From positions 1 through 32,000 of the forward strand of contig JBCCAA010000026.1 of assembly GCA_039815055.1 (NCBI GenBank): DNA of 32,000 bases, written 5' to 3'. Positions 11,617-29,389 of this stretch are shown here, piece by piece. The notes under the pieces are model-generated. The model saw only the letters and a list, made by a program, of their open reading frames with translations, was not told where the DNA came from and searched no databases. Both the position numbers and the translations under genes were made by a program. The DNA is from Pseudomonadota bacterium (GTDB lineage: Bacteria > Pseudomonadota > Alphaproteobacteria > Caulobacterales > Hyphomonadaceae). Within the stretch, counting starts at the first letter, position 1; every line of letters starts with the position of its first letter.

Positions 11617-13326
11617 ATGCAGATCGCAGTACGACAGTCGTGTCTGTTGGCCGCCCTGGCGGTGGTTGGGTTTGCCCCGATGGCCCACGCCAATCGCGTG
11701 ACCTCCACGCTGGAGTTCCATGTTCTGGAATCTGTGGGTTACCCGTGGCAGCCCATCACCTTCGACAACAATTACACCGCGCCCGTGGTGGTCTGTTCTT
11801 ATGTGTTGGCCGACGAGAATGATCCGCCTGCAACGGTGCGCCTGAACAATGTCGGCCCTACGAGTGCGGACGTCCGTATCCAGCAGTTTGAAGATAGCAG
11901 CGTTGTGACAGCTGGAACCGTGTTCTGCATCGTGTCTGAAACCGGGGCCTATACCTTGCCCGGCGGGATGCAGTTTGAGGCGCGAACCGTGGTGTCCGAC
12001 GAGACCAGCAGCGGCTCAGGCGGTCAGGGCTGGAATCAGTCACGTCTGGAAAACATAACAGGAGACCTCACCCAGACGTACTCAAATCCCGTTCTTGTGG
12101 GTCAAGTGATGAGCTTCAACGATACGCTTGCGAGCGTGTTTCATGCCACCGATTGCGAACAGCGGCAAAACCGACCCTTCCAGGGCGGGTTCTCTGACGG
12201 CGCCTGCGTGGGCAAGCATATCGGTCAGATCAATGGCACCCGGGCGAGCGAAACCCTCGGCTATATGGTGATCGAAAATGGGACCGGAAATGCCAATAAC
12301 ATCTTCTGGCAAGCCGGGCGCACGGGCAACAATGTGGCAGGCACGGGCAACAACCCGCCCTACTCCAATTCCGTCAGTCGCGACTTTGATGCCGGTGTTG
12401 GCGCCATGGCGGGCGAAAATGGCGGCAATGGCGGCTGGTGGGTGTTCTACGGCGCTGACCCGTTGCCATCAGGCCAGATTAGCGGTGCCATTGAGGAAGA
12501 AACTGTGGCGGGGGACAGGTCTCGCAGTCACATCAATGAAGAGGTTAACTACTGGCTGTTTGAAGACAACAACGCCCCGGTTCTCACCCTCGACAAAACG
12601 GCGCCGGAGACCGATTTCGGTGAACTTGGTGAGGTCATCACGTTTTCCTATGAGATCGAGAATACCGGGAACGTCTCCATCTCTTCGATCACGCTGGATG
12701 ATGACCAGATCGGGGCGATCACCTGCCCCGCCACCACATTGGCGGCGAGCGCCAGCTTCACCTGCACCGCAGACTATACCGTCACCGCCGCTGACATCAC
12801 CGCCGGCAGCGTCACAAACATTGCCACGACCGATGGTGACCCAGACTTCGGAAAACTGGATGAGGCCACAGACACCTGGACGCTGACTTACGCCCCTGGG
12901 CCGGCCAATTTCACCGTGGAGAAGACGGTGGAATACGAGACGCCAGGCAGCTATTCCCTGCCCGGCGAAGACGTTATCTATCAGTTGGTGATCACCAATG
13001 AGGGCGAGAAATCGCCCGATGACGGTACGCTGTTCCTGGTCGATCAGTTGCCGCCGGAAGTGGCAATCTTTGGCGGTAATTTTGAAGCGTCTGGCGGGCC
13101 CGTTTCTTTTGCAGAGAGCGGGACGGGGCTTTCGGTGATCGGGTCAGGAACGATTGGGTTCTCCAGAAACACGGCGCGACCCGTGTCTATGCTGGACTGC
13201 GGTGAGACGCCGAGCGCGCCCTATGATGCGACGATCACCTACGTTTGCCTTGCGCCGTCCGGCACGTTTGCAGGCGCAAATCCTGATCCGAGTTTTACGA
13301 TCCGGTTCCAGGCGCGCCTGCAATGA
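11617..13326 (+). CDS. Large secreted protein with C-terminal DUF11-type 'conserved repeat' Ig-like domains
   Basis: Signal peptide MQIAVRQSCLLAALAVVGFAPMAHA. Two repeat-like modules follow: 'LTLDKTAPETDFGELGEVITFSYEIENTGNVSISSITLDD...CTADYTVTAADI' and 'FTVEKTVEY...GEDVIYQLVITNEG'. I do not recognise the N-terminal ~300 aa. Confidence 0.7.
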   Translation: MQIAVRQSCLLAALAVVGFAPMAHANRVTSTLEFHVLESVGYPWQPITFDNNYTAPVVVCSYVLADENDPPATVRLNNVGPTSADVRIQQFEDSSVVTAGTVFCIVSETGAYTLPGGMQFEARTVVSDETSSGSGGQGWNQSRLENITGDLTQTYSNPVLVGQVMSFNDTLASVFHATDCEQRQNRPFQGGFSDGACVGKHIGQINGTRASETLGYMVIENGTGNANNIFWQAGRTGNNVAGTGNNPPYSNSVSRDFDAGVGAMAGENGGNGGWWVFYGADPLPSGQISGAIEEETVAGDRSRSHINEEVNYWLFEDNNAPVLTLDKTAPETDFGELGEVITFSYEIENTGNVSISSITLDDDQIGAITCPATTLAASASFTCTADYTVTAADITAGSVTNIATTDGDPDFGKLDEATDTWTLTYAPGPANFTVEKTVEYETPGSYSLPGEDVIYQLVITNEGEKSPDDGTLFLVDQLPPEVAIFGGNFEASGGPVSFAESGTGLSVIGSGTIGFSRNTARPVSMLDCGETPSAPYDATITYVCLAPSGTFAGANPDPSFTIRFQARLQ

Positions 13327-14313
13327 TCATTGGGCGATGGATATGGAGATCGCTCCAAAGCGCTGCGGGCCAGCCTGGGCCACAAACTGCTCTGTTCGGT
13401 GGACATAGGTAAACGCGACCTGGACGTTCCGATAGTGTAGCGCCGCACCGGCCTGAACATCGCCAACAAAGTCGCGGCGGTCAGAGACAGACCGGCTGTC
13501 GCGGAACGTGTTGCCATCGAGAAAGATGTCACGGGCCACCGCGCGCGCTTCCATCCCAACGAAAAGATAACCGCCCACGGTCTGACTCGGCTGGAACACG
13601 CCAGCGCCGGTCAGGGCGGGACGAATACGGGGGGGGCCAAAATCGGCATCCAAGTCGAACCCGATTCGAGCCATTCCACCGCCGGCAAGATATGTGCGCA
13701 CATTGCCCAGGGCCGCGCCGATATGAACCCCATAATCCGTTTCCAGACCAAAGGGCAGGTCCGGTCCGTCATAAAGCTCCAGCCGCTGGGCGATCAGTTC
13801 CACGCCCGGCTCATCGTGCAGTTGCTGGTCCCATCCTTGCGGATCAACGCCATTGATCAGTTCATGCCAATTGGTCTGGACAAATTCGGCAGACGCCGAC
13901 GGCCCAACGACCCCGAGATTGAGCTGTAAGACATCTTGCGTGTTTTCATCGCTCGCGACGACGGTGCCGGACACGTGCAACCAGCCAGCATAGGGACGGT
14001 CGGTTGGGTCTGGATCTACTGCCGAGATGTCTTCCGGCGTGTAAATCGCGTGGGCGATAGCGAAGCCCTGGCGCAGATCGATGCGTTCAAGGTCCAGACC
14101 GGGGACGAGTTCTGCAGCCTCACGCAATAGCGGAAACACGCGATCTGCCGGGCTGACGCGCTCAATTCGGAAGCCATTGGAATAATTTCGATCCGTTCCG
14201 CCGAAAAGGTCATTCTCTGACGTGATCGAAATCACCCCGACCGGCTCTTGCGCCGCTGCCGGCGACATCGCGCAAAGGCTTCCGGCCAAAACACATGAAA
14301 CGGTTCGCAGCAT
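13327..14313 (-). CDS. LpxR-family (DUF2219) outer-membrane lipid A deacylase-like protein
   Basis: SENDLFGGTDRNYSNGFRIE is the family's N-terminal signature. Signal peptide MLRTVSCVLAGSLCAMSPAAAQ from ATG 14313. The alternating pattern is beta-barrel-like and ends in ...ISISIAQ. Confidence 0.8.
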   Translation of the reverse strand: MLRTVSCVLAGSLCAMSPAAAQEPVGVISITSENDLFGGTDRNYSNGFRIERVSPADRVFPLLREAAELVPGLDLERIDLRQGFAIAHAIYTPEDISAVDPDPTDRPYAGWLHVSGTVVASDENTQDVLQLNLGVVGPSASAEFVQTNWHELINGVDPQGWDQQLHDEPGVELIAQRLELYDGPDLPFGLETDYGVHIGAALGNVRTYLAGGGMARIGFDLDADFGPPRIRPALTGAGVFQPSQTVGGYLFVGMEARAVARDIFLDGNTFRDSRSVSDRRDFVGDVQAGAALHYRNVQVAFTYVHRTEQFVAQAGPQRFGAISISIAQ

Positions 14314-14533
14314 GGACTTCTCTCCAGTGTCTATCAGCCAGGAAACGACCGAAACCCGGCAAAACGCGGGCAAACCCCGCCCCAAGGCCAAACAGTCTGC
14401 GAAGTCTTCCTTGGAATTTTACGCAAAACTGCAGCGCCGCTTTCAGCGTGGCCTTAAACTGAGGCGCGTAAATTCCGGTCTGTGTCCTGTCAGAACGGCG
14501 GGACTCAAACCTGGTAGAAGACTGGACAAAAAC

Positions 14534-14803
14534 ATGGACACTCAAAACGCCGCCCGGCCCCGCGTTGACGGCCCGAACGGGTCGCAACTGACCCTGGCTG
14601 ATTTACCGCCGGCAAACATTGGCCGCTGGGTCACGCGCCGAAAGGCTGAAGTGGTCGCCGCTGTGCAAGGTGGACTGATCAGCAAGGATGACGCCCTTTC
14701 ACGCTATGGCCTTTCCGATGAGGAATTTTCGGGCTGGCTGCGGCTTTATTCGGTGCATGGCTCGAAAGGCCTGCGCGCCACCCGGTTGCAGCAATACCGA
14801 TAG
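14534..14803 (+). CDS. sciP: SciP, CtrA-inhibitory transcription factor (DUF1153)
   Basis: MDTQNAARPRVDGPNGSQLTLADLPPANIGRWVTRRKAEVVAAVQGGLISKDDALSRYGLSDEEFSGWLRLYSVHGSKGLRATRLQQYR is near-colinear with Caulobacter SciP as I recall it (..GPDGSPLT.ADLPP..T.RWV.RRKAEVVAAV.GGL...LR.TR.QQYR). The listed 193-aa ORF is an upstream extension. Confidence 0.9.
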   Translation: MDTQNAARPRVDGPNGSQLTLADLPPANIGRWVTRRKAEVVAAVQGGLISKDDALSRYGLSDEEFSGWLRLYSVHGSKGLRATRLQQYR

Positions 14804-14905
14804 ACGATCAAGCCTCGGCAACAGTTATCGGTTAAGGCGCGATTTACCGCGTGCAGATACCACGGATGCAAGGCGCACTGATCGCGCCGCTCCGTGGAGT
14901 GCACC

Positions 14906-15562
14906 ATGTCGCCGCACGCATCGCGCCTGCGCCTTGAAGCTGAACTGTTGCGCCGCCTGTTGCTGGTGGCCAGTCTCTTTGTCCTGGCTGGCCTCGGCGC
15001 GTGGCGGGCGCAACAAAGCGTGTCGCCACCGCCTGCGCTGAGCAGTGAAACCGCCTCATTTGAAGAAAACCGGCTGACCCAACTACTTTCCACTGTGGCG
15101 GGTCCGGGCCAAAGTGAAGTTCGTTTGTCCCTGCGCGCTGATGACACCTGGTCGGTGCTGGTTCTAGTGAATTCTGAAAGCCCCGCGACGGAGCTTTCCG
15201 CCGACACGATCGAAACCCTGATCGGCTCAGCCTTCCCCCTTGACCCGATCTCGGGCGATGAGATCACGATACAGCGCGTCCCGTTTGCCCAGCCCGCGCC
15301 CGGCCAGTTTTCGCGCAAGGCCACGATAGAGCTGGCCGTCATCTGCCTTTGCGCCGGCCTGGTGGCCCTGGCTCTGATGATGCCCACCCGCCGACCGACA
15401 CCTGCCCACAGCGCCCCCGTTTCACCGCCTTCACCGACGATGCACGCGGCGATGTCTGCAGATGCGCCGCGCAATTTCGCTGCCCGCAGCGTGGAAGATG
15501 ACCCAGCCCGCGCCGCCCACATTGTGCGCCAATGGCTCAGACAGGGACCGGCTGACGCATGA
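14906..15562 (+). CDS. Miniature FliF-like protein: TM, single RBM3-like core, TM, FliG-binding-like tail (218 aa)
   Basis: GGAG lies 7 nt before ATG 14906. TM1 is LLRRLLLVASLFVLAGLGAW. The periplasmic ~100 aa read ENRLTQLLSTVAGPGQSEVRLSL..WSVLVLVN..LSADTIETLIGSAFPLDPISGDEITIQRVPF, an alpha-beta-beta-alpha-beta ring-building pattern like the two halves of FliF RBM3. TM2 is IELAVICLCAGLVALALMM. The C-terminus DDPARAAHIVRQWLRQ resembles the enterobacterial FliF tail (..DPRVVALVIRQWM..). Its stop overlaps the fliG start (ATGA). Confidence 0.6.
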   Translation: MSPHASRLRLEAELLRRLLLVASLFVLAGLGAWRAQQSVSPPPALSSETASFEENRLTQLLSTVAGPGQSEVRLSLRADDTWSVLVLVNSESPATELSADTIETLIGSAFPLDPISGDEITIQRVPFAQPAPGQFSRKATIELAVICLCAGLVALALMMPTRRPTPAHSAPVSPPSPTMHAAMSADAPRNFAARSVEDDPARAAHIVRQWLRQGPADA

Positions 15563-16530
15563 AGCAAGTTCGCGAACACGCCAATACTGGCCTGAGGGGC
15601 CGGTTTGGGCCCGACACCGCCGCCCATCTGATGCGGGCCTTGGGTGATGGCGCCGCACCCATCTGGTCTGAGTTGACAGCCGATGAGGCGCGCGCCATCA
15701 GCGATCACATGGACCGTCTGCCGACAGATAATCCGCATGCGGATCGCGATGCGTTGGAGTCCTTCCTGCGCGCGTCCATTGGTGCACGTCAACCCGGCAA
15801 GGTCGAGGCGGGCACTGATCTGGCTTCAAACACATCGGTGTGGACACGCCTCGGCGATGATCATGCTCCGATTCTTGCGGCCTTGCTGGGCCGTGAAAGC
15901 CCGCAAGTGGCCGCCTGGATGGTCAGCCAGATGGATCCAAAGCTGTCTGCAACCGTCCTGCGTATGCTGGAAGAAGATACCTCTTTGACCGTGCTGGAGC
16001 GCCTCCTGGAACTCAAGCCTCCTGCACCGCCCGTGGCCGAGATGATCGAAACCACGCTGGCAGATACACTCGATCGGGTTGCGACGGGCGCCGATGGCGC
16101 AGGTCACCAGCGTGTGGCGCGCATCTTCGACCAGATCGGAAGCCGCCATGAGCAATCCCTGCTCGCCGGTTTGGACGCCAAGGCACCGGGCTCCGGCGAA
16201 AAAGTCCGCGCACAGATGTTCACGTTCAATGATCTGGCGGGCCTCGGCGCGGCGGGCATGCAGACCCTACTTGCCGCCACCGACCGGGGCGTGCTGACGG
16301 TCGCCCTGAAAGGCGCCCGCGCGGACGTGGCCAACGTGTTTTTCTCAAACCTGACGCGCCGCGCCGGGCTGCTTATCCGTGAAGAACTTTCCGGTCTTGG
16401 TGCGCTTCGCCGCTCTGAAGTGGAAGAAGCGCGCGCTGAAATCGTTGAACTGGCCCGCCAGCTTATCCGCGGCGGTCAAATTCGGCTGGTGGGCGCCACC
16501 GCTGAAGATGATGATGAGCTGGTCGAATGA
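15559..16530 (+). CDS. fliG: Flagellar motor switch protein FliG
   Basis: All three FliG regions are recognisable. N: GPDTAAHLMRALGDGAAPIWSELTADEARAISDHM. Middle: ESPQVAAWMVSQMDPKLSATVLRML (the EHPQ-type motif). C: MFTFNDLAGL...LTVALKGA...FFSNLTRRAGLLIREEL...EVEEARAEIVELARQLIRGGQI. Confidence 0.88.
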   Translation: MKQVREHANTGLRGRFGPDTAAHLMRALGDGAAPIWSELTADEARAISDHMDRLPTDNPHADRDALESFLRASIGARQPGKVEAGTDLASNTSVWTRLGDDHAPILAALLGRESPQVAAWMVSQMDPKLSATVLRMLEEDTSLTVLERLLELKPPAPPVAEMIETTLADTLDRVATGADGAGHQRVARIFDQIGSRHEQSLLAGLDAKAPGSGEKVRAQMFTFNDLAGLGAAGMQTLLAATDRGVLTVALKGARADVANVFFSNLTRRAGLLIREELSGLGALRRSEVEEARAEIVELARQLIRGGQIRLVGATAEDDDELVE

Positions 16531-16925
16531 CAAAGCGGCGCATTTCAGACACCCGACCGTTTACGTTCCAGGCCGATTTTTCTTCGCCCGCTGGAGAAGA
16601 TCCGCGTGACAACAAACGCGCCGAGGACACGGCCTCTGAACTTGCCGCGCTTGGCGCAAAACTCCAGGCCGATGCGATTTCGAAGGTTCGAGACCCATTG
16701 GACGGGCTTGCTGCCGAGCGCCTCGACCACGCGATTGCCCGACTGGGCGACGCCTTGGACGCCTTTTCAACCCTGGCGGACCGGCTGGACGATTTGGCAC
16801 GGCAACAATATGTGCCCGGCAACCTTGCAGCGCCCGCTCGAAGTGCGGCGAAAGCCATCAGTGATGGCCAGGGCGATTTGTTTGCCCTCTGTCAATCATT
16901 GCGTGCGCAATCTTCTGGGGCCTGA
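16527..16925 (+). CDS. Hypothetical 132-aa protein occupying the flbE/fliH slot of a fliF-type operon
   Basis: ATGA overlap with the fliG stop. The sequence is Ala/Asp/Leu-rich and predicted helical (..ASELAALGAKLQADAISKV...LDAFSTLADRLDDLARQQ..). Assignment is by position only. I could not identify a FliH C-terminal (FliI-binding) domain. Confidence 0.45.
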   Translation: MTKRRISDTRPFTFQADFSSPAGEDPRDNKRAEDTASELAALGAKLQADAISKVRDPLDGLAAERLDHAIARLGDALDAFSTLADRLDDLARQQYVPGNLAAPARSAAKAISDGQGDLFALCQSLRAQSSGA

Positions 16926-16941: not shown

Positions 16942-17214
16942 GTGACCATGACCCAAGCTGCCAATCCCGCCCTCGAACGCTCCCTGTTTGACGTGCCCGT
17001 GCGCGTGGACGTTGTCCTTGGAACGGTGCGCATGCCGATGGAAGAGCTTTTGTCGATGTCAGCCGGTGACGTCGTCGCGCTGGACGAGACCACGGGCCGG
17101 GATGTCGAGATCTATGTCTCAGACCGGCTTATGGCGCGCGGCCGCCTGGTGATTGCCGACGGAGAACTTGGTGTCACCCTGTCGGAAATCGTTGACGAAC
17201 GCCGCGCGGCCTAA
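16942..17214 (+). CDS. fliN: Flagellar motor switch protein FliN (SpoA domain only)
   Basis: [70 protein letters not shown] is a complete SpoA/FliN C-terminal domain. The start is GTG 16942 or ATG 16948. Confidence 0.85.
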
Positions 17215-22465: not shown

Positions 22466-23449
22466 ATGAGTGAGGCGCTTACCCCAACCGTTAACAGACT
22501 GCGTGCCGCGGGCGAGCCGACACGCCTGCGAATTCTCGCGCTTTTGAGGTGCGGTGATCTCGCGGTTGGGGAGCTGGTCGACATTCTTGGCCTCAGCCAA
22601 CCGCGCCTGTCACACCAGCTGAAAGTGCTCACAAATGCCGGTTTGGTGACCCGTTTGCCGGAAGGGGCATGGGTGTTCTATCGGGCCAAAACCAAGGGAC
22701 CGTGCGCTGACCTTATCAACCTGGCTCTATCGCAAGCTGATCTCGAAAACAGCGTGTTTTTGAAGGATCGTCGGCAATTACAGGTGGTTTTAGATGACCG
22801 GGCCTCATCGGCCGCCTCCTATTTTGACTCCATCGCAGCCCATTGGGATGCCGAGCGCGCGCTGCATTATCCTGAAAGTGCCATCGAAGCCGCCATTCTC
22901 GAGATTGTGGGCGATGGACCGTTTGATCAGATTGTTGACCTCGGCACGGGCACTGGCCGGATACTGTCCCTGCTCGCGCCCCGGGCGAGGCAAGCCGAAG
23001 GGTTGGATCTGAGCCATCAGATGCTGACAGTGGCCCGAAGCAACCTTCTCAAAGCGGGGGTGACCAACGCCAATGTTCGTCATGGAGATGCGTGCATGGT
23101 GCCTTTCGAGGCATCCAGTGTTGATCTCGTGATCATTCATCAGGTGCTTCACTTTATCGTGAGACCAGCCCTGGCCATCGAAGAAGCTGCGCGGATCCTG
23201 CGCCCGGGCGGCCGTTTGGTGATCGTGGATTTTGCCCCGCACATGCTGGAGTTTCTGCGCAGCGACCACGGCCACCGCAGATTGGGCGTGGCTGATGAAG
23301 CGCTCGGAGAGTGGGCGCGCGGAACGGGGCTAACCTTCCGGCCCGTCAGACACTTCGAATCTCCCACAGAAACGGCAGGACTCGCCGTGAAAATCTGGAC
23401 GGCCCAACAGCCGACCGCCAACTTTCCGCAAAAAGAGGCTGCCGCATGA
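22466..23449 (+). CDS. ArsR/SmtB-type HTH fused to a class-I SAM-dependent methyltransferase domain
   Basis: N-terminal: EPTRLRILALLRCGDLAVGELVDILGLSQPRLSHQLKVLTNAGLV (ArsR HTH). C-terminal: VDLGTGTGRIL (SAM motif I) ...LRPGGRLVIVDF. Confidence 0.85.
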   Translation: MSEALTPTVNRLRAAGEPTRLRILALLRCGDLAVGELVDILGLSQPRLSHQLKVLTNAGLVTRLPEGAWVFYRAKTKGPCADLINLALSQADLENSVFLKDRRQLQVVLDDRASSAASYFDSIAAHWDAERALHYPESAIEAAILEIVGDGPFDQIVDLGTGTGRILSLLAPRARQAEGLDLSHQMLTVARSNLLKAGVTNANVRHGDACMVPFEASSVDLVIIHQVLHFIVRPALAIEEAARILRPGGRLVIVDFAPHMLEFLRSDHGHRRLGVADEALGEWARGTGLTFRPVRHFESPTETAGLAVKIWTAQQPTANFPQKEAAA

Positions 23450-24366
23450 GCAGATTGTCCGTCGCGCAGGCCCAGACGGCCAAGGCCCCAGACGTGTCCT
23501 TCGAGTTCTTCCCGCCGAAAACCGAAACCATGTCGGCAAGGCTCTGGGAGTGTGTGCGCCGCCTTGAGCCCATGTCGCCGCGCTTTGTGTCGGTGACGTA
23601 TGGCGCAGGCGGGTCCACGCGCGAACGCACCCATGACACAGTTCGCCGGCTTGCCGGTGAAACCACGCTCACGCCGGCGGCCCACCTCACCTGCGTCGGC
23701 GCAACCAAGGCAGACGTCCACGAGGTTGCAGAGGAATACTGGCAGGCCGGCGTCAAACACATCGTGGCCTTGCGCGGCGACAGCCAGGACGGCATGGGCG
23801 AGCCTTTCAAACCTCATCCCGGCGGCTATTCCGGCTCCGTTGAACTGGTTGCAGGTCTTCGCGCGCACCGCCCCGACCTCGGCAAAGTGTTTGAGGTGTC
23901 AGTTGCGTGCTACCCGGAGCAACACCCCGACAGCCGGGGCTGGGGCGGCGACATGGATGTTCTCAAGGCCAAACAGGATGCCGGGGCGGACCGGGCCATC
24001 ACGCAGTTTTTCTTTGAGCCGGACACATATTTCCGCTTTCTCGACCGTGTCCATGCCGCCGGGATCACCCTGCCGATCGTGCCGGGCATCATGCTACAAT
24101 CCAATTTCAAAGGGCTGCAGAAGATATCGAAACTCTGCAACGCGAACCTGCCAGACTGGCTGTGCACACTTTATGACGGGCTGGATGAAGACGACACGAT
24201 GCGCGACCTCATCACCGCCAATGTGGCTGCAGAACTCTGCCACCGTCTGGCGGAACAGGGCGTCGATGCGTTCCATTTCTACACGCTGAACCGGGCCAAT
24301 CTGGCACTTTCGACGTGCCACCTTCTGGGTCTCAAACCCGCACCAGTGCGCGAGGAGGCGGCGTGA
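23446..24366 (+). CDS. metF: 5,10-methylenetetrahydrofolate reductase
   Basis: VSFEFFPPKT...FVSVTYGAGGSTRERT...AHLTCVG...ALRGD...AITQFFF. ATG 23446 overlaps the upstream stop (ATGA). Confidence 0.92.
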   Translation: MSRLSVAQAQTAKAPDVSFEFFPPKTETMSARLWECVRRLEPMSPRFVSVTYGAGGSTRERTHDTVRRLAGETTLTPAAHLTCVGATKADVHEVAEEYWQAGVKHIVALRGDSQDGMGEPFKPHPGGYSGSVELVAGLRAHRPDLGKVFEVSVACYPEQHPDSRGWGGDMDVLKAKQDAGADRAITQFFFEPDTYFRFLDRVHAAGITLPIVPGIMLQSNFKGLQKISKLCNANLPDWLCTLYDGLDEDDTMRDLITANVAAELCHRLAEQGVDAFHFYTLNRANLALSTCHLLGLKPAPVREEAA

Positions 24367-25394
24367 TGGCGTCAATTCTGGAGCAACTTTCAGCGGAAGC
24401 CGAACGCCGTGTCCTGATCCTCGATGGTGCCATGGGCACACAGATTCAGGGCTTTGATTTTGATGAGGCCGCCTTTCGTGGCGAACGGTTTGCCGATTGG
24501 GGAAGGCCGCTCAAAGGCAATAATGATCTCCTGAACCTCACCCAGCCCGGCGCCATTCGCGCGATCCATGAGCGCTATATCGAGGCTGGCGCCGACCTGA
24601 TCGAAACCAATACGTTCAGCGCCACAACCATCGCCATGGCCGATTATGGCATGGAAGCTGAGGCCGATGACATAGCCGCCGAAGGGGCCCGGCTGGCGCG
24701 TGAAGCGGCTGATGCTTCGGGCCGCGCGGTTGCTGTGCTTGGCGCCATCGGGCCCACCAACAAGACCCTGTCCCTGAGCCCCGATGTGAACGACCCCGGC
24801 TTTCGAGAAGTGACGTTTGAAGATGTCCGCACGGCCTATGAAGCCCAGGTTCGGGCCATGGCACCGTTTGTTGATGCCTTGCTGATCGAAACGGTGTTCG
24901 ACACGCTGAATGCGAAAGCGGCGATAAAAGCGATTATTGACGCTGATTTGGGTTTGCCGATGATCATTTCCGGCACGATCACCGATGCGTCGGGTCGCAC
25001 GCTGTCCGGCCAGACAGCCGAAGCCTTCTGGTATTCGGTGCGCCACGCGCGGCCTTGGGCTGTGGGGTTGAACTGCGCGCTCGGCGCCGAGGCCATGCGC
25101 CCGCACATCGCGGCCATCTCCAAGATCGCCAATACGCGCATCATCGCTTACCCCAATGCGGGACTGCCGAACGCGTTTGGGGAGTATGATGAAACCCCGG
25201 ATGAGACATCGGCCATGCTGGGCGAGTGGGCAGCCGCTGGCCTGGTCAACATCCTCGGCGGCTGTTGTGGCACCACGCCAGACCATATCGAGGCGATCAC
25301 CAAAGCGGCCGCGGGCAAAGCGCCGCGGACGATTCCAAACCCCGCCGCGGCCATGCGTCTGTCCGGCCTCGAACCGTTTGAACTCGCCAGTTAG
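24366..25394 (+). CDS. metH: Methionine synthase, homocysteine-binding (Hcy S-methyltransferase) domain as a separate polypeptide
   Basis: [13 protein letters not shown]...LNLTQP...IETNTF. Both zinc-ligand contexts are present: GLNCALGA and [12 protein letters not shown]. The protein ends at the Hcy/pterin linker. ATG 24366 overlaps the metF stop (TGATG). Confidence 0.9.
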
Positions 25395-25404
25395 GAGCCG
25401 CGCC

Positions 25405-25959
25405 ATGGGCAAGACCTACGACCACCTCACCGACAAACTGGTTGAGTTTATCTCCGCCCAGAAAATGTTCTTCGTGGCGACCGCCCCGCTGTCGGGCGAC
25501 GGCCATGTGAATGTCAGCCCCAAGGGCTATGACGCATTCAAGATCATTGATCCGCTGACCGTTGCTTATCTCGACACGGGCGGCAGCGGCATCGAAACCC
25601 AGGCCCACGCCATCGAGAATGGCCGGGTCACGCTGATGTTTTGCGCCTTTGAAGGCGCGCCGCTGATCGTCCGGCTTTATGGCACCGCCACGGTGACCCA
25701 ATGGGATGAGCCAGGCTTTGCTGATTTGCTGGCGCTGTTTCCCGATTTCGAGAAAGCGCGCGGCGTGTTCACGATCAAGCTGCATCGCATCACCGATAGC
25801 TGCGGTTGGGGCGTGCCGTTCTATGATTTCCACGGCGAGCGCGACCAGCTCAAACGGTTCGCCACAAATCCGAATAAATCCCCCGAAGACTGGGCCGAGA
25901 AATGGCGCACCGGAAACGCGGTCAGTATCGATGGCCTGCCCGGCATCCGACAGCACTAG
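25405..25959 (+). CDS. Pyridoxamine-5'-phosphate-oxidase-like (FMN-binding split-barrel) family protein
   Basis: MGKTYDHLTDKLVEFISAQKMFFVATAPLSGDGHVNVSPKG...GRVTLMFCAF is typical of the PNPOx-like split-barrel family. An AGGAG RBS overlaps the metH-N stop. Confidence 0.75.
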   Translation: MGKTYDHLTDKLVEFISAQKMFFVATAPLSGDGHVNVSPKGYDAFKIIDPLTVAYLDTGGSGIETQAHAIENGRVTLMFCAFEGAPLIVRLYGTATVTQWDEPGFADLLALFPDFEKARGVFTIKLHRITDSCGWGVPFYDFHGERDQLKRFATNPNKSPEDWAEKWRTGNAVSIDGLPGIRQH

Positions 25960-25965
25960 GCCGCC

Positions 25966-26409
25966 ATGTCGCTTCCCTCCGTCTCAAAGGGCGATGCCTT
26001 CATCTTCTACGGCCTGTTGAAACAGGGCGCTGCGGGTATGCCAGGTCATATCGACTTGGAAACCGCCGGAACGTTTGAACACCCGTGCCGGTTTCGCGCA
26101 AAGATGTACGATTTGGGCGGCTTTCCGGGCGTGGTGGCCGGAGATACGCTCTGCCACGGCGTTATCTGGCGGATTAAGGATGTGTCCGTGTTGGCCGAAC
26201 TGGACGATTTTGAAGACGTCGTGCCCGGCAATCGCGAAAGATCGGTCTACTGGCGCGATACATGGCCAGTCCGTGACGATATGGGCACTGCAACCGGCGA
26301 AACTGCGCAGATTTACGTGTACCGTGCATCCCTCGAGGACTGGCCCCGGGTCGCAGATGGCAATTGGCCGCTCGGCAAAGGGCGCAGCCGGAAAATGGGA
26401 GATGTGTGA
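25966..26409 (+). CDS. Gamma-glutamylcyclotransferase / AIG2-like (GGACT) family protein
   Basis: FIFYGLLKQG...MYDLGGFPGVV...HGVIWRI...LAELDDFEDV is the YGxL...G.YP...E pattern of the GGCT-like fold. Confidence 0.7.
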   Translation: MSLPSVSKGDAFIFYGLLKQGAAGMPGHIDLETAGTFEHPCRFRAKMYDLGGFPGVVAGDTLCHGVIWRIKDVSVLAELDDFEDVVPGNRERSVYWRDTWPVRDDMGTATGETAQIYVYRASLEDWPRVADGNWPLGKGRSRKMGDV

Positions 26410-26759
26410 TGACTTATGTTGATGGATTTGTGCTGGCTGTGCCGACAGCCAACAAGCAGGCTTATCTCGACCATGCCAGGGATTGCGTGCCGATCTTCAA
26501 GAAATACGGCGCGCTGCGTTGCGTTGAAAACTGGGGCGTTGATGTGCCCGATGGTGAGACAACATCGTTTCCCATGGCGGTGAAGGCCGAGCCCGGCGAG
26601 ACTGTCATGTTCTCGTGGATCGTCTGGCCCTCAAAAGAAGCACGTGACACCGGCATGGAAGCGCTGATGAAAGACCCCTTCTTTGCCCAGGACATGGACA
26701 TGCCGTTTGACGGCAAACGCATGATTTTCGGCAGTTTCGAGACGATTTTGGACGCCTAA
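26409..26759 (+). CDS. DUF1428-family small protein
   Basis: [43 protein letters not shown]...[13 protein letters not shown]...[13 protein letters not shown] matches my recollection of DUF1428. The start overlaps the upstream stop (TGATG). Confidence 0.7.
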
Positions 26760-29389
26760 TGACCACAACCACCGCCACCTTCGTCAATATTGGCGAACGC
26801 ACCAACGTGACCGGTTCGGCACGCTTCAAGAAGCTCATCCTCAACGGGGATTACCCCGCAGCCGTCGAGGTGGCCCGCCAGCAGGTGGAAAACGGCGCCC
26901 AGATCATTGATGTGAACATGGATGAGGGGATGCTGGACGGCGCCGTGGCCATGACCACATTCCTGAATCTCATCGCCGCCGAGCCCGACATCGCCCGTGT
27001 GCCGGTGATGGTCGACAGCTCCAAATGGGAGGTGATCGAGGCCGGCCTGAAATGCGTGCAAGGCAAGGCGGTGGTGAACTCGATCTCCCTGAAAGAAGGC
27101 GAGGAGAGTTTCATCAAACAGGCGCGCACCTGCATGGCCTATGGCGCAGCGGTAGTGGTGATGGCGTTTGACGAGGATGGCCAGGCCGACACGGCGCCGC
27201 GCAAGATCGAAATCTGTCAGCGCGCCTATGAAATTTTGACGAAAACGGTTGGAATCGAGCCTGAAGACGTCATTTTCGACCCGAATATCTTCGCCGTCGC
27301 GACCGGCATCGAAGAGCACAACACCTACGCCCTCGACTTTATAGAGGCCGCGCGGGAGATCCGCCGAACCTGCCCTGGCGCCCACATTTCCGGTGGCTTG
27401 TCGAACATCAGCTTCAGCTTTCGCGGCAATGAGCCTGTGCGCCGGGCCATGCATTCGGTGTTTCTGTATCACGCCATTCCGGCGGGCATGGATATGGGCA
27501 TCGTCAATGCTGGCCAGCTGGACATCTATGACGAGATCGAGCCAGACCTGCGCGAGCGGGTTGAGGATGTAATCCTGAACCGCTCAGACAATGCCACAGA
27601 CCGCCTGATCGAGATTGCCGAGAAATTTCGAGGCCAAAAGGGCAAAACGGCGGAGAAAGACACGAAATGGCGCGAATTGGCGGTCGAAGCCCGGCTTCAA
27701 CACGCCCTCGTCAACGGCATTCTCGACCATATCGTGGAGGATACCGAAGAGGCCCGCCAAACCCGCGAGCGTCCGCTGCATGTCATCGAAGGCCCGCTCA
27801 TGGACGGGATGAATGTGGTCGGCGACCTGTTCGGGTCCGGCAAGATGTTCCTGCCCCAGGTGGTGAAATCGGCCCGCGTCATGAAGGCCGCTGTGGCCCA
27901 TCTTGAACCCTTCATGGAAGAGGAAAAACAGCGCATGGGGCTGGTTGATCAGTCCAATGGCAAGATTGTTCTCGCCACGGTGAAGGGCGATGTCCACGAC
28001 ATCGGCAAGAACATTGTTGGCGTCGTGCTGGCCTGTAACGGCTACGATATTCTCGATCTGGGTGTCATGGTGCCGGCCGAGAAAATCTTGCAGACAGCCC
28101 TGGAAGAGGGCGCGGACATGGTCGGCTTGTCCGGCCTGATCACGCCGTCGCTGGATGAAATGGTCTATGTCGCCGCCGAGATGGAACGGCGCGGCATGCA
28201 TATGCCCCTGCTGATCGGCGGGGCGACCACCAGCCCGGCCCATACGGCAGTAAAGATCGAACCGGTCTACGATCGCGGTCCGGTCATCCATGTCACGGAT
28301 GCGTCGCGCGCGGTGGGCACCGTTGGCGCGCTGATGAGTGATGAGGAGCGTCCGGCTTATTGGGAGGCCGCCAAGGCGCGCTATCAACGCATGCGTGACG
28401 ACCGAGCCGGCGCTAAGACGAAACCGCGCCTGCCACTCGAAAAGGCACGTGAAAACGCTTTTTCAGCGGGGGAATCGCCATCTGCGCCCCCACCGAGCTT
28501 CACAGGGGTGCGCACGTTTGACGATTTTGATCTGGCCGAACTCACCCAATACATCGACTGGACCCCCTATTTCGCAAGCTGGGATCTGGCGGGCCGCTTC
28601 CCACAAATTCTGGACGATGAGGTGGTCGGCGTCGCAGCAACAGACTTGTGGGCGGAGACCCAGGCCATGCTGCAGCGGATCATCGGCGAGCAGTGGTTCA
28701 AACCCAAGGCCGTGATCGGCTTCTGGGGCGCACGGCCCGATGGCGACGACATCCAGCTGGAAACAGGCGGTCGCCTCCACACCTTGCGCCAGCAGATCGT
28801 GAAAACCAATGAAAAGCCGAACTTCGCCCTTTCCGACTTTCTTTCCGCCGACGACGATCACATCGGTGCGTTTTGCGTCACGTCGGGGCCCGAAGCCGAT
28901 GTGTTGGCCAAGGAATTTGAGGCCGCGGGCGATGACTACCAGGCCATTATGGTGAAGGCTCTGGCCGACCGGTTTGCCGAGGCCATGGCCGAGATGATGC
29001 ATGCGCGCGTGCGACGCGAACTGTGGGGTTATGCGGCAGATGAAGGTCTCGATAATGAGGCGCTGATCAAGGAAAAATACCGTGGCATCCGCCCCGCGCC
29101 CGGCTATCCGGCCCAGCCCGATCACACGGAAAAAGAATTGATATTCAAACTGCTAGAAGCTGAAGATCGCATTGGCGTGTCGCTGACCACCAGTTTCGCC
29201 ATGGACCCGGCGCCCAGCGTGTCAGGGCTCTATTTCGCTCACCCGGACAGCGTCTATTTCGCCGTCGGCCGGATCGAGCGCGACCAGATCGCCGACTATG
29301 CCGCCAGAAAGGGCTGGGACATGCGCACCACCGAACGCTGGCTCGCACCGATCCTGAACTATGACCCTTATGCGCGGGAGGCGGGGTAG
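26759..29389 (+). CDS. metH: Methionine synthase, pterin-binding + B12-binding + AdoMet-activation domains
   Basis: It starts at the pterin domain ([20 protein letters not shown]). The cobalamin motifs are [10 protein letters not shown] (DxHxxG), SGLITPS and LLIGGATTS. The activation domain shows [15 protein letters not shown] 26759 overlaps the upstream TAA (TAATG). Confidence 0.95.

Follow-up and report, generated by a model that had tools for sequence, protein, structure and literature searches.

The locus described here raises the question of what kind of protein a FliF of only 218 amino acids (aa) is, and for what use a bacterium would keep it. The window, that is, the whole 32,000-nucleotide (nt) stretch analysed, covers positions 1 to 32,000 of contig JBCCAA010000026.1 (GenBank assembly GCA_039815055.1) from a member of Hyphomonadaceae, and the gene in question, designated fliF' below, is located on its plus strand (14906..15562), as are the other features of its cluster. 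In the original prediction, made from the sequence alone, the product of this gene had been described as a FliF-like protein reduced to two transmembrane (TM) helices, the bare core of the third ring-building motif (RBM3), and a FliG-binding tail. This anatomy was recovered by homology and predicted fold, and, judged by the parts that it keeps and lacks, FliF' is a paralog or variant of FliF, the protein of the membrane/supramembrane (MS) ring of the flagellum, and not a FliF ortholog. As set out below, it probably belongs to a second, rotor-derived set of proteins with a use other than flagellar secretion.

The open reading frame (ORF) extends from ATG 14906 to TGA 15562. The start was placed at this ATG, and not at GTG 14894, because the N-termini of the homologs align with the ATG, and a Shine-Dalgarno sequence, GGAG, can be read 6 nt upstream of it (14896..14899). 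Hydropathy analysis of the translated protein detected two strongly hydrophobic stretches, aa 12–36 and 137–163. An AlphaFold2 monomer model, obtained from an alignment of 82 family members with a mean predicted local distance difference test score (pLDDT) of 85.2, contained a long N-terminal helix (3–38), followed by helix 52–65, strands 70–76 and 82–89, helix 99–109, strand 119–125, helix 137–158, and two short C-terminal helices (191–198 and 200–212). TM1, expected at about aa 17–36, was found by both approaches (aa 12–36; 14939..15013), with an Arg-rich cytoplasmic N-terminus ahead of it, and TM2 was likewise confirmed (aa 137–158; 15314..15379), with residue E142 at its periplasmic edge. 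The predicted topology of the protein is N-in/C-in, with the Arg-rich flanks of the two TM helices on the cytoplasmic sides. No lipobox was present at the N-terminus, which is occupied by the TM helix itself.

Between the two helices lies a single uninterrupted alpha-beta-beta-alpha-beta unit (aa 52–127; 15059..15286), assigned from AlphaFold2, Foldseek, hhalign, and BLASTP, and joined to the membrane by linkers of approximately 10–15 residues, the gap between TM1 and this unit being about 15 residues. The helix-strand-strand-helix-strand order that had been read from the sequence corresponded one-to-one to the elements of the model. The first strand (70–76) passes into the second (82–89) through a turn of five residues, with no collar in the model. 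The fold was predicted to be that of an RBM, and the top Foldseek matches were domain 2 of PrgK (4oyc), FliF RBM3, and EscJ (1yj7). TM2 is followed by a cytoplasmic tail of approximately 60 aa, close to the length originally proposed, which ends in a two-helix segment (aa 191–213; 15476..15544) of the form DPxxAAxxxRxW[LM], homologous to the end of FliF that binds the N domain of FliG. Within the family, conservation was highest and column entropy lowest in this tail, where P200, R208, and W210 were each retained by 81 of the 82 members. The TM helices and the RBM were also among the most conserved parts, and E142 was retained in 76 of the 82 members.

Kinship with FliF was settled by profile methods, and single-sequence tools could barely detect it. 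The profile of the 82-member family matched Salmonella FliF (6scn) with an E-value of 5.4e-7, aligning family positions 85–219 with FliF 396–559 and pairing the family consensus DParaArviRsWm with FliF DPRVVALVIRQWM; a weak second stretch of the same alignment paired positions 46–74 with FliF 240–268. When the family was compared with E. coli FliF by hhalign, positions 82–129 were aligned with FliF 378–432 at a probability of 96% (E 2.4e-9). BLASTP against P0083, a canonical FliF of 509 aa, gave two collinear segments, FliF' 54–79 with 243–268 (50% identity, E 3e-5) and FliF' 40–214 with 323–509 (E 1e-9); note that the homologous part of the latter begins only at FliF' 82 (P0083 354); its first 40 or so residues set alpha1-beta1, which the other segment had already matched, against part of the collar. 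Between the two segments, P0083 has about 85 residues to which nothing in FliF' corresponds, and in the alignment with canonical FliF proteins (A3) the same was true of approximately 200 residues of the RBM1/RBM2 region. The 6scn profile, hhalign, the P0083 comparison, and A3 agreed in placing alpha1-beta1 of FliF' before the collar of canonical FliF and beta2-alpha2-beta3 after it, so that the two halves of RBM3 are contiguous, as had been proposed. The claimed absence of RBM1, RBM2, and the collar was borne out by the gaps in A3 and by the lack of any match of FliF' to Pfam PF01514 (YscJ_FliF, covering RBM1 and RBM2), even at E-values up to 1; the protein also has no space for RBM1 or RBM2. 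The resemblance of the tail to the FliG-binding helix of FliF also held, since it aligned with the FliG-binding C-termini of Salmonella and Vibrio FliF.

At the same time, the single sequence was not called by the curated models. The match of FliF' to Pfam PF08345 (YscJ_FliF_C) reached 20.6 bits, below the gathering threshold of 23.8, and joined aa 82–127 to positions 100–147 of the 147-position profile; 15 of the 82 family members matched this profile at E ≤ 0.01. No NCBIfam fliF model matched FliF', and pairwise BLASTP against E. coli FliF was barely informative (E 0.01–0.04). A search of the PDB with a two-sequence profile of FliF' did not return FliF, whereas the 82-sequence profile did, and a word-indexed search with the single FliF' sequence gave two matches, so that an exhaustive profile search was needed. 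The designation as a paralog was chosen because the TM topology, the RBM3 core, and the tail are present, but RBM1, RBM2, the collar, and scores above the curated thresholds are missing. Two proteins of 297 aa from JGI metagenomes, labelled FliF (P0065 and P0150), have an intermediate architecture: RBM1 and RBM2 are missing, but between TM1 and TM2 there is an RBM3 that still contains the collar, and the tail is present. A repeat protein of 2071 aa (P0022) that also appeared in the profile search was treated as a spurious low-complexity match.

Whether so short a FliF might be the product of a local accident can be answered from its distribution. The exhaustive profile search of 1.84 billion representatives resulted in 90 proteins, of which about 82, each 195–245 aa long, were matched end to end. 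These members are representatives at 50% identity, and they fell into 50 clusters at 40% identity. They were 22–49% identical to the FliF' of the window, with intact ORFs and the same length and architecture. The named members came from Hyphomonadaceae metagenome-assembled genomes (MAGs), Hyphomonas sp., Hyphomonas oceanitis, Henriciella pelagia, and other Henriciella; the majority bear the annotation hypothetical protein, and a few have a COG, UniRef, or JGI label of FliF. The FliF' of the window fell into the same 90%-identity cluster as NCBI MEO0466307.1 ("MAG: hypothetical protein [Pseudomonadota bacterium]"). The possibility that the gene had arisen by internal deletion or by chimeric joining during assembly was worth considering for a sequence from a MAG, and the original prediction had named a deletion artefact as a risk; however, an identical protein with the same gene neighbours is encoded in a Logan assembly made independently from another run (SRR22824269), and the same architecture occurs in the isolates H. 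oceanitis (GCA_000685295.1) and H. pelagia as well as on multi-megabase contigs. An assembly or annotation artefact is effectively refuted by these findings, and the gene belongs to a conserved family.

The ratios of nonsynonymous to synonymous substitution rates (dN/dS) between related loci were 0.07–0.34 for FliF', 0.03–0.18 for FliG', 0.04–0.20 for the FliH-like protein, 0.014 for FliN', and approximately 0.03 for SciP; dS was saturated in several pairs, and the pair L006 and L008 was the least saturated and most reliable. The cluster is under purifying selection. A search of the GTDB species representatives with alignment A5 found no relative, and the same search with alignment A6 returned only a Hyphomonadaceae MAG and one Gemmatimonadota FliF-like locus; the window's own clade thus appears to be absent from these representatives at the level of the search patterns used. 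In the literature, no description of a short FliF family or of a sciP-linked second FliG/rotor set was found, and the family is not mentioned in PMC12199754 or PMC8116508.

The gene neighbourhood points to the partners of FliF'. In every related locus recovered, the order was sciP, fliF', fliG', fliH-like, and fliN', and the 4-nt overlaps between genes were conserved across loci. The first gene of the window cluster, directly upstream of fliF', encodes a SciP-like protein of 89 aa with a DUF1153 domain (14534..14803; Pfam PF06627, E 9.7e-35), and a DUF1153 gene holds this position in every related locus. The stop codon of fliF' shares four nucleotides, ATGA (15559–15562), with the start of fliG', which suggests translational coupling. 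FliG' (323 aa; 15559..16530) has N, M, and C domains by Pfam (FliG_N, FliG_M, and FliG_C), with a TIGR00207 score of 107.9 against a cut-off of 226.7. Of its N domain, which is shortened, the part that binds FliF is left, including the N-terminal helices, and Pfam FliG_N covers only positions 4–60 of 104. Also retained are the EHPQR-type FliM-binding motif (E[HS]PQ...R148), the MFxF motif, and the torque-helix charges: ESPQ...R148, MFTF, R268, E275/E276, and R284 of FliG' correspond to EHPQ...R160, MFLF, R281, D288/D289, and R297 of E. coli FliG. Despite these motifs, neither fliM nor a stator gene is present in the cluster.

The next product, of 132 aa (16527..16925), whose gene overlaps fliG' by 4 nt, matched weakly the first part (positions 4–87 of 205) of NF004691, the alphaproteobacterial FliH model (E 2e-3, 17.9 bits against a cut-off of 179), and no Pfam family covered any part of it. 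It would lack the FliI-binding C-terminal domain of FliH because it is too short for it, and an N-terminal RRxxxxPFxFxxDF and a C-terminal DGQG(D/E)LF segment were kept across loci, with strict conservation of PFxFxxDF and DGQG(D/E)LF. The final gene of the cluster in the window, fliN' (16942..17214), encodes a bare SpoA domain of 88–90 aa (Pfam FliMN_C, E 4e-20; TIGR02480, E 2e-22), which is very strongly conserved. In most relatives (L002, L004–L008, and L012–L014), fliN' is followed by genes for an FlhF-like SRP54-type GTPase of approximately 332–338 aa, a MinD/FlhG-like ATPase, and CtrA, the latter scoring 413.8 bits on NF045991 (cut-off 350). No rod, hook, export-gate, or fliM gene was found near the related loci L001–L008 and L012–L014, and no fliM, fliI, or export-gate gene was present in any fliF' cluster examined. 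One Hyphomonadaceae MAG clade carries genes for an OmpA-domain protein (approximately 400 aa) and a coiled-coil protein (560–620 aa) inserted between the fliH-like gene and fliN' (L002 12164–15072, L004 12160–15070, and L005 12168–15257); the OmpA domain is of the peptidoglycan-binding type that MotB carries at its C-terminus.

A second conserved element of the locus was read from the sequence upstream of fliF'. A GTTAA-N7-TTTAC box lies 59–75 nt 5' of the fliF' start (14831..14847 in the window) in all nine non-redundant loci (the window, L001, L002, L004, L005, L006, L008, L012, and L013), the FliF' proteins of which are only 25–30% identical. These nine boxes were the sole matches to TTAA-N7-TTTA on both strands of 339 kb of non-redundant locus sequence. 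The box resembles the CtrA consensus, TTAA-N7-TTAA (PMC6180460), from which it deviates by one base, its second half-site being TTTA; the exact consensus had no match in the window. Together with the sciP and ctrA neighbourhood, the box suggests that CtrA would drive a cell-cycle-timed transcription of the cluster. A scan for consensus sigma-70 promoters and terminators gave nothing meaningful in the operon.

The question of whether FliF' could be the MS-ring protein of its host can be approached through Hyphomonas neptunium. The supplement of PMC7200025 lists for this organism a canonical flagellar cluster with HNE_0241 (fliL), HNE_0242 (fliF, whose nearest homolog in Caulobacter is CC_0905), HNE_0244 (fliN), HNE_0245 (fliP), and HNE_0246 (fliG), and its tables also place motB, fliI, flgB, and flgC in the canonical cluster. 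A separate set in the same organism consists of HNE_1390 (sciP), HNE_1391 (hypothetical), HNE_1392 (putative FliG), and HNE_1393 (hypothetical) (PMC7200025). The gene order and the presence of family members in other Hyphomonas species indicate that HNE_1391–HNE_1393 would be fliF', fliG', and the fliH-like gene. Since H. neptunium has a full-length fliF elsewhere and since members of the family occur in flagellated Hyphomonas, FliF' is probably not the flagellar MS ring, and the short FliF most likely belongs to a second set of paralogous, rotor-like proteins that exists beside a working flagellum.

These observations are combined in the following picture, to which a probability of roughly 0.55 can be given: FliF' would be a minimal FliF paralog within a second, non-secretory, rotor-derived module that serves as a polar or cell-cycle scaffold or checkpoint. 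FliF' would oligomerise through its RBM, as other RBM proteins do, into a flat ring on the periplasmic face of the inner membrane, and its tail would recruit the N domain of the co-translated FliG'. FliG', FliN', and the FliH-like adaptor would then make up a small, C-ring-like platform on the cytoplasmic side. In solved MS-ring structures, RBM1 and RBM2 surround the export gate and contact it, and the rod is held in place by the collar. The complex would be non-secretory because RBM1, RBM2, and the collar are absent and because the cluster has no gate, rod, or ATPase genes; it would neither build a flagellar basal body nor replace the flagellum. The original statement that such a protein could oligomerise and recruit FliG but could not house a rod or an export gate is, as far as the anatomy goes, a reasonable one. 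That the set is a second and specialised one is argued from the restriction of its named members to Hyphomonadaceae and from the separate full-length fliF-fliG-fliN of H. neptunium, and a cell-cycle-regulated polar scaffold or checkpoint, derived from an ancestral sciP-linked fliF operon, is favoured because of the links to sciP, ctrA, flhF, and flhG.

Several facts weigh against this picture. Ring formation by FliF' and its binding to FliG' are deduced from homology, and the Foldseek E-values of the model were marginal (approximately 3e-3), as can be expected from the small size of the domain (about 75 residues), with generic alpha/beta folds in the same list. Among the genes of the cluster, constraint is weakest on fliF', with a dN/dS of 0.34 in the least saturated pair. 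After fliN', the window itself has an opposite-strand bacterioferritin gene in place of flhF, flhG, and ctrA, and no other flagellar gene, including those for the export gate, rod, and hook, lies within its 32 kb, so that no full flagellar set is seen there. The coexistence argument depends on the correspondence of HNE_1391–HNE_1393 with the fliF' cluster, which was drawn from gene order and from the members found in other Hyphomonas species. Moreover, HNE_1391–HNE_1393 are flagged as having no CtrA chromatin immunoprecipitation (ChIP) site and as lying outside the direct CtrA regulon, the adjoining sciP being a direct target (PMC7200025), which weakens the suggested role of CtrA. The same three genes were up approximately 1.5- to 2.1-fold in a divJ deletion strain (PMC7200025).

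A scaffold of this kind has to be weighed against other uses of the same proteins. FliF', FliG', and FliN' could instead be accessory to the real flagellum. Jointly with the products of the flhF-like and flhG-like genes, they would serve as a seed at the pole, as a decoy, or as a counter, and would set the place, time, or number of canonical MS rings or report the state of assembly to CtrA and SciP. In polar flagellates, FliF is brought to the pole by FlhF, and in most related loci the flhF-like and flhG-like genes follow directly after fliN'. The members occur in flagellated genera, and FliG' keeps its EHPQR-type motif in a cluster without fliM, so that it could engage the canonical FliM. Against this stand the lack of flhF and flhG in the window cluster, the location of the H. 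neptunium FlhF homolog at another locus (HNE_0942), and the possession by the module of its own FliG and FliN, with no obvious dependence on the canonical ones; an accessory role is therefore a possible but rather unlikely explanation. Comparably doubtful is a self-contained machine that would work independently of the flagellum, with a collar-less FliF' ring carrying its own FliG'/FliN' rotor and either engaged or turned by stator units or coupled as a polar checkpoint to CtrA and SciP. The intact stator-contact charges of FliG' are noted in its favour. If it were true, stalked, budding alphaproteobacteria would have turned proteins of a rotor to the control of the cell cycle or of polarity, and the ring would be the smallest natural MS-ring-like assembly known.

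Another explanation, that FliF' is the working MS-ring protein of a lineage whose flagellum can do without RBM1, RBM2, and the collar or obtains them from a different protein, is suggested by the position of fliF' in the place of fliF in the alphaproteobacterial operon order sciP, fliF, fliG, fliH/flbE, and fliN, by the torque-helix charges kept in FliG', and by the FliF labels given to some members by UniRef and JGI. It was judged very improbable: H. neptunium has the full-length HNE_0242 in a complete flagellar cluster besides its sciP-linked set, the rod, hook, export-gate, and fliM genes are missing near the related loci examined, and the parts that are absent from FliF' are those that contact the export gate and hold the rod in the known structures. 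The shortening of FliF', of the FliG' N domain, and of the FliH-like protein, of which only the N-terminal half is left, as well as the highest dN/dS of the cluster in FliF', would also fit the decay, without present function, of what is left of a second flagellar system, and Caulobacterales commonly lose flagellar genes (PMC12700997). Decay is, however, hard to reconcile with intact ORFs of the same length and architecture in about 82 representatives at 22–49% identity, with dN/dS values well below 1 for all five genes, with the conservation of the 4-nt overlaps and the upstream box, and with a conservation that is highest at the tail, and this explanation is improbable as well. The non-secretory scaffold or checkpoint is the preferred reading.

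The minimal FliF can be further characterized by comparison with the systems to which it is related. Canonical FliF (552–560 aa in Salmonella and E. coli; 6SCN and 7D84) likewise has two TM helices around a periplasmic region, its RBM3 core and FliG-binding tail are homologous by sequence to those of FliF', and its gene lies directly 5' of fliG and overlaps it. Unlike the canonical protein, FliF' has no RBM1/RBM2 (the SctJ-homology region), no beta-collar (about 85–110 residues between beta1 and beta2 of RBM3), and a much shorter cytoplasmic linker, and, as far as the gene order in H. neptunium indicates, it coexists with a full-length FliF. The operon at the sciP locus of Caulobacter, whose class II gene order is fliF-fliG-flbE-fliN, resembles the fliF' cluster in gene order, in its sciP neighbour, and in a similar CtrA-type promoter logic. 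In Caulobacter, CC_0903 is sciP and CC_0905 is fliF (PMC7200025 S8 Data). Caulobacter FliF, however, is of full length and builds the flagellum, whereas in the fliF' cluster FliF, FliH, and the N domain of FliG are reduced and the set is apparently a second copy.

The short FliF of Chlamydiaceae, the only previously described natural short FliF that was found, is reduced by a different route. This protein of approximately 330 aa is a FliF-FliG fusion that keeps an RBM2-like domain and ends in a FliG-M-like C-terminus (Bergeron 2016, PMC4768692). Like FliF', it is naturally reduced, has two TM helices around a short periplasmic part with an RBM-like unit without insert, and is found outside a complete flagellar set; FliF' differs from it by its normal FliG-binding tail, by the separate fliG', and by phylum and context. 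A closer parallel is the modelled fragment of FliF 228–443 with residues 274–378 deleted, that is, RBM3 minus its insert, which was a modelling exercise only (PMC4768692). The FliF' family is, in effect, the natural form of this construct, in which alpha1-beta1 is joined directly to beta2-alpha2-beta3, with the difference that it is evolved, anchored in the membrane, and under selection. The RBM of SpoIIIAH has no insert and that of SpoIIIAG has one, and both proteins form rings (PMC4768692), so that this pair parallels FliF' and FliF in the absence and presence of the insert. SpoIIIAH and SpoIIIAG differ from FliF' in that their only TM helix is N-terminal, in the lack of a FliG-binding tail in the cytoplasm, and in their restriction to Firmicutes, and no sequence match between them and FliF' was found. 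SctJ proteins (PrgK and EscJ) share the RBM fold; unlike FliF', they are lipoproteins that contain two RBMs and no more than one TM helix, at the C-terminus, and that lack a FliG-binding tail, and no sequence-level match was obtained between FliF' and SctJ with Pfam or with the two-sequence-profile search of the PDB.

The anatomy of FliF' would be surprising to a flagellar specialist, even though the protein may prove to be a lineage-specific accessory. With a natural minimal FliF, it could be examined which parts suffice for oligomerisation of the MS-ring type and for setting the FliG stoichiometry, questions so far approached by engineered truncations. The private FliG, FliN, and FliH-like proteins, together with sciP and often ctrA, flhF, and flhG, point to a non-flagellar use in lineages with a polar-development life cycle. 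Additionally, surveys that count fliF, fliG, and fliN as indicators of motility in Caulobacterales or Hyphomonadaceae could be misled by the second set.

The flanks of the cluster in the window are of a housekeeping nature and include genes for LpxR, bacterioferritin and Bfd, class I lysyl-tRNA synthetase (LysRS), MlaA, MlaC, methylenetetrahydrofolate reductase (MTHFR), and MetH. Neither tRNA genes nor Rfam families at the gathering threshold were detected in the 32-kb window; thiC and metH, both of which are present in it, are genes that often carry riboswitches. Directly 5' of the sciP-fliF' cluster lies the gene for the lipid A deacylase LpxR (13327–14391, minus strand), adjoined by a gene for a secreted protein of 569 aa with DUF7507/CLIPPER_2 repeats (11617–13326). 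Methionine synthase appears to be split within 22466–29389 into a homocysteine S-methyltransferase ORF (24315–25394) and a second ORF that covers the pterin, B12, and activation domains (26759–29389), and it is preceded by genes for an ArsR-fused S-adenosylmethionine (SAM) methyltransferase and MTHFR. A PNPOx-like ORF (25156–25959) overlaps the 3' end of the 24315–25394 ORF and enters the gap between the two parts, where it is followed by a small ORF.

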